Source: a virus (lineage: Duplodnaviria; Caudoviricetes). From it: 64,000 nucleotides of DNA. The position numbers and the translations under genes were made by a program. Below, in pieces: positions 14,750-61,438 of the stretch. The stretch is taken from IMG/VR virus record IMGVR_UViG_2872728642_000001, positions 16,810 to 80,809 of that record; one strand, 5' to 3'. Each line of letters starts with the position of its first letter. Position 1 is the first letter of the stretch. The notes below the pieces were generated by a model. The model made no database searches and was not told the origin of the DNA. It saw nothing but the letters and a program-made list of their open reading frames with translations.

Positions 14750-14914
14750 TCACCAGACGCGCGTCAGCCGGTACTGTTCCACGTCCTCGGCGTGCCCCAC
14801 CGAGTACCGGCAGCCGCCGCACAGCGCACGGTCGGTCCACGTGCCCAGGTTGACCGCGCCGCAGTGGTGCAGCCACGCCGTCTTGTCCAGTGCGCTCGTT
14901 CTCGACCTGGGCAC
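14750..14914 (-). CDS. Small Cys/His protein (54 aa, MPRSRTSALDKTAWLHHCG...CGGC)
   Basis: Read by hand (not in the ORF track); RBS AGGAGG before GTG; follows the recombinase. Confidence 0.5.
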   Translation of the reverse strand: MPRSRTSALDKTAWLHHCGAVNLGTWTDRALCGGCRYSVGHAEDVEQYRLTRVW

Positions 14915-14923
14915 GTGACCCTC

Positions 14924-15892
14924 CTACTCCAGTAGCGACGCCACCACCTGAGAGGCGTCCTTCTCCAGCCGATCCCGGCTGTGCAGATATATCTCCGTCG
15001 TGGACACGTCGGCGTGGTTGAGGTCGAGCTGGATCTGCCGCATCGCCACGCCGGCCTCCTGCGCCAGCGACGCATAGGTGTGCCTGCACGAGTGCGGCCC
15101 CACCTTCGACGTGATGCCCGCCTGCATGGCGATGCGCCGCACCAGCTCGAACGCCTTCGACCTGCTCCAGCTCTGGCCGGTCGAGGTCGCGAACAGCGGA
15201 CCCGTCAGGTCCTGCAGCTCGATCCCTTCGCGGCGCGCCCGCTCAGCGAGGTAGATGTCCAGCGTGTGCGTCGTCTCCACCGGCAGACGTCGGGTGATCG
15301 TGTCGCCGCCCTTCACCGTGATGCGCAGCGTCCGGTACCCGCGGGCGAACCCGAGGTCGTCGATCTGCGCGTTGATTGCCTCGGAGATGCGGATCCCGGT
15401 CTGCAGCAGCAGCCGGATCAGCGCCGCGGTGCGCAGCCGTTCCCGGCCGTGGTCGGCGTCGGCCGCCCGGAGGAAATCCTGCGCCTCTCCCTTGGTGAGC
15501 GCGACCGTCTCGGAGTGCTTGCGCGGGATCTTCGGCCGCCGCGTCTTCTTGAACCGGTTGGCGTCGAGGGCTTCGGTCTCGTGCAGGTACTCGTACCAGG
15601 ACGACACCGACGACAGCACCTGAGCGACCGTCTTCGGCTTTGGCGGCCGGCGGGCCGTCTCCTGGTACCAGCGGGAGAACACGTCGCCGTGCGGCTTGCG
15701 TGCCTCCAGCGGGTCGAGGCCGGTCTCCGCGCAGAACTGGAACCAGCGCCGGATGTTCCGCTCGTACGCTTCGCGGGTGTGCGGCGAGTCATACGACCAC
15801 AGCCACGCCCGGGTCAGGTCGAGGATGATCGGCGGGAGGTCGAGCGGGAGCGCGAGGTCGCCGCGCGGCGCCTGGACCAGCTCGCCGGTCAT
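14924..15892 (-). CDS. Tyrosine recombinase, XerC/D-like resolvase
   Basis: Catalytic R (TGIRISEA), K (TVKGG), HxxR (HSCRH), H/Y (LNHADVSTTEIY); SAM-like N-domain (SPHTREAY). Confidence 0.92.
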   Translation of the reverse strand: MTGELVQAPRGDLALPLDLPPIILDLTRAWLWSYDSPHTREAYERNIRRWFQFCAETGLDPLEARKPHGDVFSRWYQETARRPPKPKTVAQVLSSVSSWYEYLHETEALDANRFKKTRRPKIPRKHSETVALTKGEAQDFLRAADADHGRERLRTAALIRLLLQTGIRISEAINAQIDDLGFARGYRTLRITVKGGDTITRRLPVETTHTLDIYLAERARREGIELQDLTGPLFATSTGQSWSRSKAFELVRRIAMQAGITSKVGPHSCRHTYASLAQEAGVAMRQIQLDLNHADVSTTEIYLHSRDRLEKDASQVVASLLE

Positions 15893-16173
15893 CCCTCACC
15901 GCCGAAGTGCTCGCACGCCTCTTCGACGCTCGCGCGGATCGACAGCTTGGCGCATACCAGCGACAGGATCGCGTCGAGGTCGTCCGCCGTGTACTCGGGA
16001 TGCTCGCGGGCCTGGCGGATCACCGCGCTGAGGACAGCCGCGGTGATGGACGCCGAGCGCAGGTCGATGCCCTCGTACTGGGCGATGATGTCGCTCAGCC
16101 GCTCGGAGGTGTGCTCGCGGCGGGCGTGCTCGGGCTCGTCCTGGCGGAAGAGGTCGGAGTAGTCGATGCTCAC
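15889..16173 (-). CDS. Hypothetical protein (94 aa)
   Basis: Overlap-coupled ORF in the recombinase operon. Confidence 0.65.
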   Translation of the reverse strand: MSIDYSDLFRQDEPEHARREHTSERLSDIIAQYEGIDLRSASITAAVLSAVIRQAREHPEYTADDLDAILSLVCAKLSIRASVEEACEHFGGEG

Positions 16174-16409
16174 CGAGTACCGCCATGCGAGAGTTCGTCG
16201 AGGAGCGCCCGCAGAGTTGGGTTGCCGACGGCGAGCGCTTCCAGCTCGGGACGAGCGTGCGCGTACAGCTCGGGGAGGAGCGGGTCGCGGGACTGCAGGG
16301 CGGCGGCGACTCCTTCGCCGGTCGCGTCGGGCCAGCGGAACCGGACACGAGCGATCAGGGTGTCGAACGCGGCGGCCGGGTGGAGCCGGTCACTGCTGGG
16401 GTTGCTCAT
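16170..16409 (-). CDS. Hypothetical protein (79 aa)
   Basis: First ORF of the recombinase operon. Confidence 0.55.
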   Translation of the reverse strand: MSNPSSDRLHPAAAFDTLIARVRFRWPDATGEGVAAALQSRDPLLPELYAHARPELEALAVGNPTLRALLDELSHGGTR

Positions 16410-16460
16410 GAGAGCACCTTTCACGAGGGATGTGGATCACTCGTGACGGTACCACGCAGA

Positions 16461-16488
16461 GCGGAACATAACGTGAATTATGTTCCCA
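16461..16488. promoter_or_regulatory. dif/loxP-like tyrosine-recombinase site GCGGAACATAA-CGTGAA-TTATGTTCCCA
   Basis: 11+6+11 layout, perfect 9-bp inverted arms GGAACATAA/TTATGTTCC, ATAA-N6-TTAT core as in Xer dif sites; ~50 bp upstream of the recombinase operon. Confidence 0.75.
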
Positions 16489-16624
16489 TCTCAGCGATCT
16501 TGGCCGCACCGTCAGACCGTAATGCGATCTCACCGAAGCCGGGACCCGTCCCGCCAGGAGCCACGAAGATAGGCGCATGGTCTTTTGGTTTGGGCATACC
16601 CGGAGTTGGCGTGGCGCTGCAGGA

Positions 16625-16999
16625 ATGAGCACCTGGCAGTTCGGCGTCCTCCACCTAGGGGCGGTCATCGGGTTGGGAGCGGCCACGGCCGAACTGCAAC
16701 TGCAGCATGCACTCTGGTGGTCTGCCCTGTTGTATGCGGTGTTGGGCTGGCTGTCCGGCGGGAAAGTGGTCTCGGAGCTGAGATGGGTACGCCCTCTGCC
16801 CAAGTCGAGACGCACCCGGGCAGTAAAGCTCGTGCTCGCCATCCCTGCTGCCACGCTGGGTCTTTGGGTCAACCCGGTTACCTTCTTCAGCCGGACGTTG
16901 GGGGTCGTCGAGCTGCAATTCATGCTGTGGGGGCCGATCGCCCTCTTCGGGCTGTGCATTGCTGCGGCCAGTTGGTACTTCTTCCGGGACTTTCGGTAA
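16625..16999 (+). CDS. Small multi-pass membrane protein
   Basis: 124 aa with ~4 hydrophobic segments; opposite strand to neighbours. Confidence 0.6.
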   Translation: MSTWQFGVLHLGAVIGLGAATAELQLQHALWWSALLYAVLGWLSGGKVVSELRWVRPLPKSRRTRAVKLVLAIPAATLGLWVNPVTFFSRTLGVVELQFMLWGPIALFGLCIAAASWYFFRDFR

Positions 17000-17027: not shown

Positions 17028-17249
17028 TCACTCGCTGACCGCCGCAAGCGCGCGGGCCAGCCTCTGCTTACCGCCCCGCGGCCGCAGCGGCGCCCCCGCC
17101 TCCTCCAGCAGCCGGTGAACGAACCCGTACGAGCGGCCCGTCGAGAGCGACAGCCCCCGGATCGACTCCCCGTCCAGGTACCGGCGCTTCAGCTCCGCCT
17201 TCAGCGTCTCGCGCTCGGCACCGGACACCCGCTGATACTTCCGAACCAT
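17028..17249 (-). CDS. Small HTH DNA-binding protein (actinobacterial HTH_58-type)
   Basis: 'LKAELKRRYLDGESIRGLSLSTGRSYGFVHRLLEEAGAPLRPRGG' signature. Confidence 0.85.
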   Translation of the reverse strand: MVRKYQRVSGAERETLKAELKRRYLDGESIRGLSLSTGRSYGFVHRLLEEAGAPLRPRGGKQRLARALAAVSE

Positions 17250-17274
17250 CACAGCCACCCCTGTCTGATTGCTC

Positions 17275-17544
17275 TCACGCAGCCGCCGCCAGCCGAACCC
17301 GCAACGCATCCCGGCCCTCCGGCGTCTCGGGCACTTCGTCGCCCCGCCAGATGCAGCCCTCGATCGTCGCCAAGTCGGCGAAGTCGTACACGACCTCGCG
17401 GCCAACCCGGCCCAGCACCCGGACGCCATACCTGCGCGCCCACTGCCGGATCGTCACCGCCTCCCGGCCCAGCCGGACAGCAGCGGTCTTCGCCGTCGCA
17501 GGGGACACCAACACCCCCCGAACAGCGGAAAGCCCCCGAACCAT
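17275..17544 (-). CDS. MerR-like HTH protein
   Basis: 'TAAVRLGREAVTIRQWARRY...VVYD'. Confidence 0.65.
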   Translation of the reverse strand: MVRGLSAVRGVLVSPATAKTAAVRLGREAVTIRQWARRYGVRVLGRVGREVVYDFADLATIEGCIWRGDEVPETPEGRDALRVRLAAAA

Positions 17545-59790: not shown

Positions 59791-60079
59791 CGTTCTCTGG
59801 CCTGGGGCGGCTCCTGAGGGGTGGCGACCTGGAGGGCTCTCGCCGTGTTCCGGCGGTCTCGTGTGATACAAATAATACAACTCGACGCGTCTGACGTGTC
59901 AGACACACCATAGCGCGCTCTCTGCGTCTATACGAGACGTGCGCGCAGAGATCACCAAGCGCGACGGGACGACCCCGCTGATGACGGGTTCACGCGGCCT
60001 CAGGCCCGCGACCAGGCGAAACCGTCAGACCGGAGCAGCCTCGCCGCGCGCCGACCCCCACCCCTCAAGGAGAAGCACG

Positions 60080-61354
60080 ATGGCCCGCGTCAAGGACCTG
60101 TGGTTCAAGACCGTGACGGACCCGAACGGCGCACAGAAGCGCGAACAGACCGCCCGGCACGGGAAAGGAAAGCGCTGGTTAGCGATCTGGACGAACCTCG
60201 AAGGCCGCGAGCAGACGAAGGCGTTCATCAAGAAGACGGAGGCCGAGAAGCACGGCTCGATGATGGAGGCCGACAAGATGCGGGGGAACTACATCGACCC
60301 GAACGGCGGCAAGACGCGCCTGGCTGCCCTCGTCGAGGGCGAGGAGGGCTGGCTGGCGTCCCTCACTGCCGACCCGTCCACCCGGCAGATCTACGAGATC
60401 TACTGGCGGGTGCACATCAAGCCGAAGTTCGGGCAGCGGGAGATCGGCTCACTCCGGCCGAGTGAGATCCGTGCTTGGGTCAAGCAGCTCGAGAAGCGGC
60501 TGGCGAAGAGCACGGCCAACCGCGTGCTGGCCTTTCTCGATCAGCTCCTGCAGAGCGCCGTGGATGATGACCTGATCGCCAAGAATCCGTGCGCGTCGAA
60601 GGTCGTCAAGAAGCCCAAGGCCGAGGCACGGAAGGTAGTGCCGTGGTCGATGCAGCGTCTGCAGGCGGTGACCGAGGCGCTTGCAGAGCGGTACCGGATC
60701 CTCGCGACCTTGGGCGCGGGTCTCGGGCTTCGCCAGGGCGAGATCTTCGGTCTGGCCGTGGACGACGTGGACTTTGACAAGGGCATCGTCCACATCCGGC
60801 AGCAACTGAAGATGCTCGACTCCAAGCTGCTGTTCGGGCTGCCGAAGCATGATCGCGAGCGGACGATTCCTCTGCCCGAGTCGGTTGCCCAGGTCCTACG
60901 GGAGTACCTGGGGCGGTTTCCGGCCCGGGAGGTCGCTCTGCCCTGGGAGGAACTGGACGGGGAGTTGATCACCTTGCGGCTGATCATCACCAGCCGGGAG
61001 TCCAAGGCGTTGAACCGCAACTACATCAACACCTACGTCTGGAAGCCCGCTCTTGTGCGGGCAGGCGTGGTCACTCAGGCGGATCTCGACGCGCGGGTGC
61101 CAGGGCGTCGGAACCAGAGGAACCGCAAGCACGGCATGCACGCCCTGCGGCACATGTACGCCAGCTTGCTGCTCGACGCCGGCGTGTCCGTCAAGGCCTT
61201 GGCCGAGTACCTGGGGCACATGGACCCTGGGTACACGCTCCGGGTGTACACGCACCTGATCGCTGGCACCGAAGGCCGGGCGGCGAACGTCATCGACACG
61301 GCGTTCCGCCATGAAGTCCCGGAGACCGGAACAGAGCCGGAACAGCACCCTTAA
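60080..61354 (+). CDS. int: Tyrosine integrase
   Basis: RBS AAGGAG; R (GLRQGE), K (PKH), HxxR (HALRH), LGH, Y (YTH); arm-binding and SAM-like N-domains. Confidence 0.95.
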   Translation: MARVKDLWFKTVTDPNGAQKREQTARHGKGKRWLAIWTNLEGREQTKAFIKKTEAEKHGSMMEADKMRGNYIDPNGGKTRLAALVEGEEGWLASLTADPSTRQIYEIYWRVHIKPKFGQREIGSLRPSEIRAWVKQLEKRLAKSTANRVLAFLDQLLQSAVDDDLIAKNPCASKVVKKPKAEARKVVPWSMQRLQAVTEALAERYRILATLGAGLGLRQGEIFGLAVDDVDFDKGIVHIRQQLKMLDSKLLFGLPKHDRERTIPLPESVAQVLREYLGRFPAREVALPWEELDGELITLRLIITSRESKALNRNYINTYVWKPALVRAGVVTQADLDARVPGRRNQRNRKHGMHALRHMYASLLLDAGVSVKALAEYLGHMDPGYTLRVYTHLIAGTEGRAANVIDTAFRHEVPETGTEPEQHP

Positions 61355-61390: not shown

Positions 61391-61409
61391 TCACACCTAC
61401 GACGTGTGA
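61391..61409. other. Candidate att core (prophage boundary)
   Basis: TCACAC-CTACGAC-GTGTGA: 6-bp IR around a 7-bp overlap, 37 bp after the int stop; coincides with an orphan gene 3' end (VDHTYDV*) followed by a strong hairpin. Confidence 0.5.
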
Positions 61410-61438
61410 CGGCTGGTTCTCGTACAGAACCGGAACGC

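Follow-up and report, generated by a model that had tools for sequence, protein, structure and literature searches.

A Xer-like recombinase and its dif-like site as a probable multimer-resolution unit of Nonomuraea phages

The recombinase and its site

We analyzed a 64,000-nucleotide stretch of viral DNA (hereafter the window), positions 16,810 to 80,809 of the IMG/VR record IMGVR_UViG_2872728642_000001, which corresponds to C2:6,488,190-6,552,189 of a 12.78-Mb chromosome whose genome has its closest protein relatives in Nonomuraea. The subject of this study is a gene for a Xer-like tyrosine recombinase in this window, together with the dif-like site that lies upstream of it. The recombinase (P0001, 322 aa) is encoded by a complete open reading frame (ORF) at positions 14924..15892 on the minus strand. 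The 28-bp site, to which no strand is assigned, occupies positions 16461..16488 and has an 11-6-11 layout, reading GCGGAACATAA-CGTGAA-TTATGTTCCCA, or TGGGAACATAA-TTCACG-TTATGTTCCGC in the orientation of the operon. Within it lies a perfect 9-bp inverted repeat, GGAACATAA-CGTGAA-TTATGTTCC, at positions 16463-16486. A gap of 51 nt separates the site from the ATG (16409) of the first of two small ORFs that precede the recombinase gene. An earlier note made from this DNA (the original prediction) had described a complete recombinase with all catalytic residues and a site of this design about 50 bp upstream of its operon, and both descriptions proved accurate.

The recombinase matches the domains PF00589 (3.5e-24, 85.9 bits) and PF02899 (1e-06, 29.3 bits), and it shows the catalytic R-K-H-R-H/W-Y set and the N-terminal SAM-like core-binding domain of the tyrosine recombinase superfamily. 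Its residues R168, K194, H267, R270, H293 and Y302 align to the catalytic residues of Escherichia coli XerD (1a0p), and all six are invariant in 15 orthologues with identities down to 46%. The models of XerD, XerA and XerC gave the top family scores. These scores nevertheless fall below the curated cut-offs for XerC and XerD (TIGR02224, 134.6 vs 335 bits; TIGR02225, 139.1 vs 329.6 bits), as well as below the equivalog cut-offs for XerA (136 vs 220 bits) and XerS (75.7 vs 267 bits). Judged by these scores, the enzyme is Xer-like, yet it is a member of no curated Xer family. Its nearest solved structure is XerD, and Cre is not among the matches in the Protein Data Bank at an E-value of 1e-5 or better.

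We also searched for further copies of the site. When up to three mismatches were allowed, the 28-mer occurred once in the window (0.00 expected from shuffled sequences) and once in the entire 13.77-Mb assembly, at C2:6,504,650 inside the prophage; no second copy was found in either, in agreement with the single copy noted in the original prediction. Relaxing the pattern to ATAA-N6-TTAT gives 14 matches genome-wide, a background of about one per Mb, and the window contains no match other than the phage site. With no second site in the window or the genome, a switch that works by inversion or excision with a recognizable partner is ruled out. A telomere-resolution site was also considered and rejected, because the spacer of the phage site is not palindromic.

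Linkage and co-variation of the site and the recombinase

To examine the association between the two elements, we compared 24 orthologous loci from other Streptosporangiaceae genomes, in which the recombinase shares 51-94% identity with that of the window. Upstream of the recombinase, 23 of the 24 loci contain exactly one CATAA-N6-TTATG, at distances of 23-1458 bp from the start of the gene. In the exception (L021) the site is absent, the recombinase is frameshifted and the upstream DNA is rearranged. The original prediction had named the absence of the site beside orthologous recombinases as one observation that would speak against it, and the opposite was found. The recombinase is the sole protein that is constantly linked to the site, and the small ORFs between the two vary. 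An arrangement of one recombinase gene linked to one site, as in single-recombinase Xer modules, was thus seen in 23 of 24 loci, and also in seven of eight plasmids described below.

Next, we aligned 28 sites. The inner CATAA/TTATG is constant across the alignment, and arm positions 9-12 vary jointly on both sides. The arm covariation score was 0.375, compared with 0.115 ± 0.021 for shuffled alignments; none of 500 shuffles scored as high, and slid controls gave 0.18 or less. The two outermost arm positions are unpaired, so that the real arms are 9 bp long, and the functional palindrome of the phage site would accordingly be a 9-6-9 element at 16463-16486. Three arm types, GGAACATAA, TGGTCATAA and CCCYCATAA, coincide with three recombinase clades in a maximum-likelihood tree (support 96/94, 100/99 and 100/100), and two arm types coexist in single genomes, namely those of N. 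sediminis and strain LPB2021202275. Close relatives differ freely in their spacers, whose first base is nonetheless always T in the gene orientation. The recombinase is the only constant protein neighbor, and the arm types track its phylogeny, which makes it the strongest candidate for the protein that binds the site. The symmetric arms and the single linked gene suggest that it would bind there as a homodimer.

Extrachromosomal relatives and plasmid homologues

Relatives of the prophage were found as separate contigs in two genomes. In N. antri, the entire phage is contained in one 99,127-bp contig (G003:C11, L131-L135) that is collinear with the prophage and circularly permuted; its integrase end is joined to its left end, which gives attP, and one gene is split across the contig ends. 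This contig is a free circular form of the phage, though it encodes an integrase. The name of the contig states a coverage of 128. In N. maritima, a related contig of 94,716 bp (G002:C75, L126-L130) has a 38-bp end overlap and is recorded in IMG/VR as a whole viral genome. It encodes a ParA ATPase with a deviant Walker A box (65174-66037), and it is likely to be a phage-plasmid. No other tyrosine recombinase, integrase or resolvase-domain match was found on this contig, which leaves the Xer-like enzyme as the sole site-specific recombinase identified there. Two further features of the N. maritima contig are a 279-aa protein with repeated ribbon-helix-helix-like units that precedes ParA, and an ATP-grasp and methyltransferase pair near its start. 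Each recombinase-bearing full-length phage contig that we examined carries exactly one intact site. One recombinase and one site per circular extrachromosomal replicon, the arrangement typical of Cre/lox systems, is therefore found in the relatives, while the copy in the window is integrated.

Homologues with 31-37% identity to P0001 occur on actinobacterial plasmids. Of eight plasmids examined, seven have a (R)ATAA-N6-TTAT(Y) palindrome upstream of the homologue, sometimes with small genes between the two: Kocuria pKPAL3, a Rothia, a Micromonospora and a Verrucosispora plasmid, two Pseudonocardia plasmids and a Streptomyces plasmid. The spacers of these plasmid sites start with C. The product of pKPAL3 ORF4 shares 37.5% identity with P0001 over 91% of its length, and GTCATAA-N6-TTATGAG lies 33 bp upstream of the gene. 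Deletion of ORF4, alone among the four ORFs of pKPAL3, is reported to lower segregational stability markedly, whereas ORF4 is dispensable for replication (PMC5711781). This phenotype is classic for multimer-resolution systems. The searched parts of the same report name no site for ORF4 (PMC5711781).

The flanking motif, the leader and possible autoregulation

The site is embedded in conserved noncoding DNA. Directly upstream of it in the operon orientation lies a 15-bp motif, CCAAGATCGCTGAGA (16489..16503, minus strand; consensus TCAAGATCGCTAAGA), which adjoins the site throughout the 24 anchored loci, distant clades included, and is possibly a promoter or an accessory element. On the other side, a conserved leader (16410..16460, minus strand) extends from the site to the first ORF and contains TACCGT, an instance of TANNNT, at 16446-16451, as well as a GAAAGG ribosome-binding site. 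The TANNNT starts about 9 nt past the site, and its TA is invariant in 16 aligned leaders despite their differing downstream ORFs. The constant parts of the unit are therefore the flanking motif, the site, the leader with TANNNT and GAAAGG, and the recombinase, together with a 54-aa ORF in 11 of the 24 loci. Because the site sits within this conserved promoter/leader region, it is plausible that binding of the recombinase to the site would limit its own expression. A hairpin in the leader RNA was also considered; changes in a few loci look compensatory by eye, and RNAalifold gives no consensus structure. In addition, loci of the TGGTCATAA clade share a GATC just past the site, in the other loci it recurs within the leader, and the phage encodes DNA methylases. 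Methylation-sensitive control at these positions is conceivable.

The same region raises the question of whether the palindrome is only an operator, through which the recombinase or another protein controls the operon without any recombination. The position of the site between the conserved upstream motif and the conserved TANNNT and leader would suit an operator, as would the constancy of CATAAT (the left arm and the first spacer base) in the Nonomuraea loci. The start of a non-conserved, divergent membrane-protein ORF (16577-16999, plus strand) only 88 bp from the site would fit as well. However, a mere repressor would not need the six catalytic residues that are invariant down to 46% identity, and CATAA/TTATG is the core sequence found in Xer dif sites. 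The plasmid homologues also retain the site even though their spacers start with C, the pKPAL3 homologue has a stability phenotype (PMC5711781), and the site has no other DNA-binding protein as a constant neighbor. We therefore consider an operator-only function unlikely.

The prophage, its integrase and the host dif

The window lies in a prophage that encodes an SPP1-type portal, a minor capsid protein (SPP1 gp7-like) and a large terminase, along with ParB-N, ABC-GNAT genes, an HNH nuclease and methylases. Outside the module, it carries a separate tyrosine integrase of 471 aa (59939..61354, plus strand; PF00589, PF22022 and PF14659). A 17-bp direct repeat, CTACGACGTGTGACGGC, which forms the attR core, is located at 61397..61413 (plus strand), 43 bp past the integrase stop codon. 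Its left copy, at C2:6451195, is 98.4 kb leftward, outside the window, and covers the stop codon of a host gene. The stretch bounded by the two copies of CTACGACGTGTGACGGC is exactly where the G+C content drops, from about 0.73 to about 0.68. The repeats and the G+C drop indicate a prophage of about 98.4 kb that was inserted by the 471-aa integrase and that carries the module in the middle of its genome. The module site is not split into hybrid attL and attR sequences, and the prophage ends carry the CTACGACGTGTGACGGC repeat instead. In this respect the original prediction of a Cre/lox-like pair that is independent of the integrase was borne out, given that the site accompanies 23 of 24 orthologues and co-varies with them, and that a different enzyme integrates the prophage.

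We also located the Xer system of the host. The chromosome encodes XerD-like and XerC-like proteins (324 and 319 bits), and dnaA is at C2:10.18 Mb. Approximately opposite lies a dif-like site, TTGCTCGATAA-TGAACA-TTATGTCAAGT (C2:3847461-3847488; L031:9462-9489), which is likely to be the chromosomal dif and matches the Frankia dif given in PMC3025954. No second dif-like copy was seen within 100 kb of it with up to eight mismatches. A 377-aa tyrosine recombinase frame (C2:3840675-3841556) is located 6 kb away. The phage site is 2.66 Mb from the host dif and is identical to it at 16 of 28 positions, including three of six in the spacer. The possibility that the phage site is itself the chromosomal dif was rejected, given the positions of dif (3.85 Mb) and dnaA and the location of the site inside the prophage. 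Moreover, the unit is carried by phage genomes, integrated or circular, and by plasmids, and the host retains its own XerCD and dif, which is not the setting of a chromosome-dimer resolution system. The suggestion in the original prediction that the unit might target the host dif also fared poorly, in view of the limited match and of arms that track the phage enzyme.

These data bear on whether the unit is a second integration system, in which the site would serve as attP for similar or dif-like sites in other hosts or replicons. Isolated Arthrobacter and Gordonia phages carry homologues with 31-34% identity whose annotation reads integrase; we examined three of these phages, Maja (L029), Jablanski (L118) and Auxilium (L119), and in each the homologue adjoins a second integrase gene (serine or tyrosine). 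This, together with the dif-like core of the site, would be compatible with such a role. However, the site is intact and internal in all 23 loci, with conserved phage genes flanking it in most, and it is single and intact in the full-length contigs. Searching the host genome with up to three mismatches revealed no second site, and the host dif is a poor match. Spacers differ among close relatives, and the ends of the prophage are accounted for by the other integrase. A second integration system thus seems quite improbable.

Proposed role of the unit

Taken together, it seems fairly likely that the site and the Xer-like recombinase constitute a self-contained Cre/lox-like multimer-resolution unit, which is probably self-regulating. 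We infer binding, recombination, the resolution role and autoregulation from sequence comparison. In this model, each of the two 9-bp arms would be occupied by one recombinase monomer, with strand exchange across the 6-bp spacer. With one site per phage genome, the partners would be the copies on sister or multimeric circular genomes, so that the reaction would reduce circular dimers or multimers to monomers at any stage at which the phage DNA forms a circle. Such stages may include the period after infection or excision, theta replication, and the plasmid-like prophage state in relatives. Since the site lies in the promoter/leader region of the operon, binding would also limit the expression of the enzyme. 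Multimer resolution was among the roles raised in the original prediction, and it gains support from the free circular relatives, the relative with ParA and no other recombinase found on its contig, and the phenotype of pKPAL3 (PMC5711781).

Several points weigh against this interpretation. The binding and recombination activities of the phage member are deduced from its sequence. The prophage in the window is integrated and lacks ParA, so that its need for resolution is indirect. The 38-bp overlap of the N. maritima contig falls in a repetitive coding stretch, and the circularity of that contig is likely rather than proven. A promoter scan found no consensus sigma-70 promoter in the window. 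No comparable site was found within 3 kb of the homologues in Maja, Jablanski and Auxilium, nor within 3 kb of IMG/VR homologues with 35-48% identity; the site rule is established only for the closer clade and the plasmid clade. Finally, a headful-type packaging module needs concatemers, and resolution could oppose the lytic cycle.

This last point introduces the question of whether the unit works in the other direction, multimerizing circles for headful packaging, or lets co-infecting relatives swap halves of their genomes at a defined position. Simple tyrosine recombinase systems are reversible, and MrpA of SCP2 multimerizes an mrpS plasmid in E. coli (PMC4685060). The gene content (terminase, portal and an SPP1 gp7-like protein) points to headful packaging, the module lies between early and packaging genes, and the DNA just past the site is highly mosaic. 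On the other hand, the plasmid homologues have no packaging to serve, and the phenotype of the pKPAL3 gene is one of stabilization (PMC5711781). Co-resident modules differ in their arms, which would block an exchange. We regard multimerization or genome exchange as quite unlikely to be the function of the unit.

A broader and rather unlikely extension of the multimer-resolution reading would be that the unit acts as a lifestyle-independent "monomerizer" that lets an actinomycete phage lineage with genomes of ~95-100 kb switch between integrative (Int) and plasmid (ParA) states. The arm specificities might then serve as incompatibility or identity labels that prevent recombination among co-resident phages, and the same enzyme would perhaps multimerize the DNA for headful packaging.

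Comparison with known systems

Cre/loxP and Dre/rox each consist of a single phage tyrosine recombinase and a palindromic site beside its gene, and phage-plasmids of the P1 type use Cre/loxP for dimer resolution or circularization. The present unit resembles both systems in being a phage-borne lone recombinase with one simple palindromic site by its gene. The proposed role in keeping circular phage DNA monomeric is that of Cre/loxP in P1, and the N. maritima phage (C75) resembles a ParA plasmid-prophage. However, the site is of the dif type (9/11-6-9/11) rather than 13-8-13 and the enzyme is closest to XerD, and, in contrast to P1, the copy in the window belongs to an integrated prophage that has its own integrase.

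The unit also resembles the XerA/dif system of archaea, XerH/difH and XerS/difSL, in which one Xer-type enzyme acts with a nearby 11-6-11 site that has an ATAA/TTAT core (PMC5357621). It differs from these XerA, XerH and XerS modules in its scores, which lie far under the cut-offs, and in being borne by phages and plasmids rather than located at a chromosome terminus. With the chromosomal XerCD/dif system and the integrative mobile elements exploiting Xer (IMEX) it shares the CATAA-N6-TTATG core. XerCD itself is a pair of different recombinases that act on two different arms and are activated by FtsK. Unlike these, it has its own recombinase, symmetric arms that co-vary with the phage enzyme and a location other than dif, and there is no dif mimicry, so that it does not have the features of an IMEX.

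Among plasmid systems, ORF4 of pKPAL3 ("XerD") is a true homologue with an upstream CATAA-N6-TTATG site, although that gene resides on a 4.4-kb multicopy plasmid and its site has another arm sequence. MrpA/mrpS of Streptomyces coelicolor SCP2* is likewise a tyrosine recombinase with a short site on an actinomycete replicon, and it is reported to resolve and form plasmid multimers (Warth et al. 2011, as cited in PMC3218068 and PMC4685060). Membership in the same family was rejected, because the identity is 23% (pairwise E-value 3e-5) and no ATAA-N6-TTAT was seen upstream of mrpA. MrpA/mrpS is a functional analogue from another subfamily.

Large plasmids are known to carry recombinase machineries next to recombination sites (PMC5357621), and recombinase-plus-site modules are well known in general. 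What is new here is a dif-type unit that is common to actinobacterial plasmids and large Nonomuraea phages and whose specificities co-evolve; no prior description of such a phage/plasmid unit was found in the searchable literature. The unit connects a plasmid gene with an experimentally observed stability phenotype (pKPAL3 ORF4) to numerous plasmid genes that lack annotation and to a gene belonging to the core of a family of large Nonomuraea phages, one of which is a likely phage-plasmid, and it names a DNA site for each. The intact, internal site and the presence of another enzyme that integrates the phage are also a reason to drop the "integrase" annotation for small recombinases of actinomycete phages. 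At least three natural specificities (GGAACATAA, TGGTCATAA and CCCYCATAA) on sites of 24-28 bp are available from high-G+C hosts, which makes them potential orthogonal tools of the Cre/Dre kind for engineering actinomycetes.

Neighboring genes and related modules

The original prediction placed the recombinase in a three-gene operon. Both small ORFs look real in the window, but they are not conserved beside the orthologues, so that this part of the arrangement is a local accident. Small ORF 1 (79 aa from its ATG; 16170..16409, minus strand) has no family match and has partial counterparts only in L019, L025 and L007, at positions that are not conserved. Small ORF 2 (94 aa; 15889..16173, minus strand), with a G+C content at third codon positions (GC3) of 0.93, also lacks a family match and adjoins the recombinase in only one other locus (L004). 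Both are regarded as variable cargo, and a role as recombinase partners was rejected because they are neither matched to a family nor conserved. On the other side of the recombinase gene, a Cys/His-rich ORF of 54 aa (14750..14914, minus strand; GC3 0.91) appears to be translationally coupled through a Shine-Dalgarno sequence, AGGAGG, 6 nt before its GTG. This AGGAGG overlaps the recombinase stop codon, and counterparts of the 54-aa ORF in the 11 loci mentioned above adjoin the recombinase with 65-89% identity. Profile searches gave no family match for it.

Among the orthologous loci, the commonest first gene after the site encodes a protein of 67-102 aa with the pattern MSVRxFPLTLRV...VVFRKV, which is absent from the window. 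It is found at L002:3725-3928 and also in L005, L006, L008, L011, L014, L007, L009, L019 and L020, and it has no match in Pfam or PHROG. In three loci the interval from site to recombinase is free of ORFs, and the site there lies 23-50 bp from the start codon. In the window, upstream of the membrane-protein ORF, positions 17028-17544 (minus strand) encode a conserved HTH_58 protein and a MerR/excisionase-like protein of 89 aa.

The host also carries an 854-kb replicon with a paralogous module (C1:385389-386448; L030:6390-7551), in which TACCCCCATAA-TCCTTC-TTATGGTGTAC lies about 12 bp before a recombinase gene whose product is 38% identical to P0001. In this paralogue, N replaces the second conserved His (MGNASS...GYHDRH). 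Elsewhere in C1, the region 722932-726127 contains an ATAA-N6-TTAT palindrome, ATTCTGCATAA-CACCGA-TTATGCGGCGG, followed by three tyrosine recombinase genes (C1:723445-726127), a run that has the look of a recombinase-in-trio. Two further consecutive tyrosine recombinase genes are located at C1:803733-806163.

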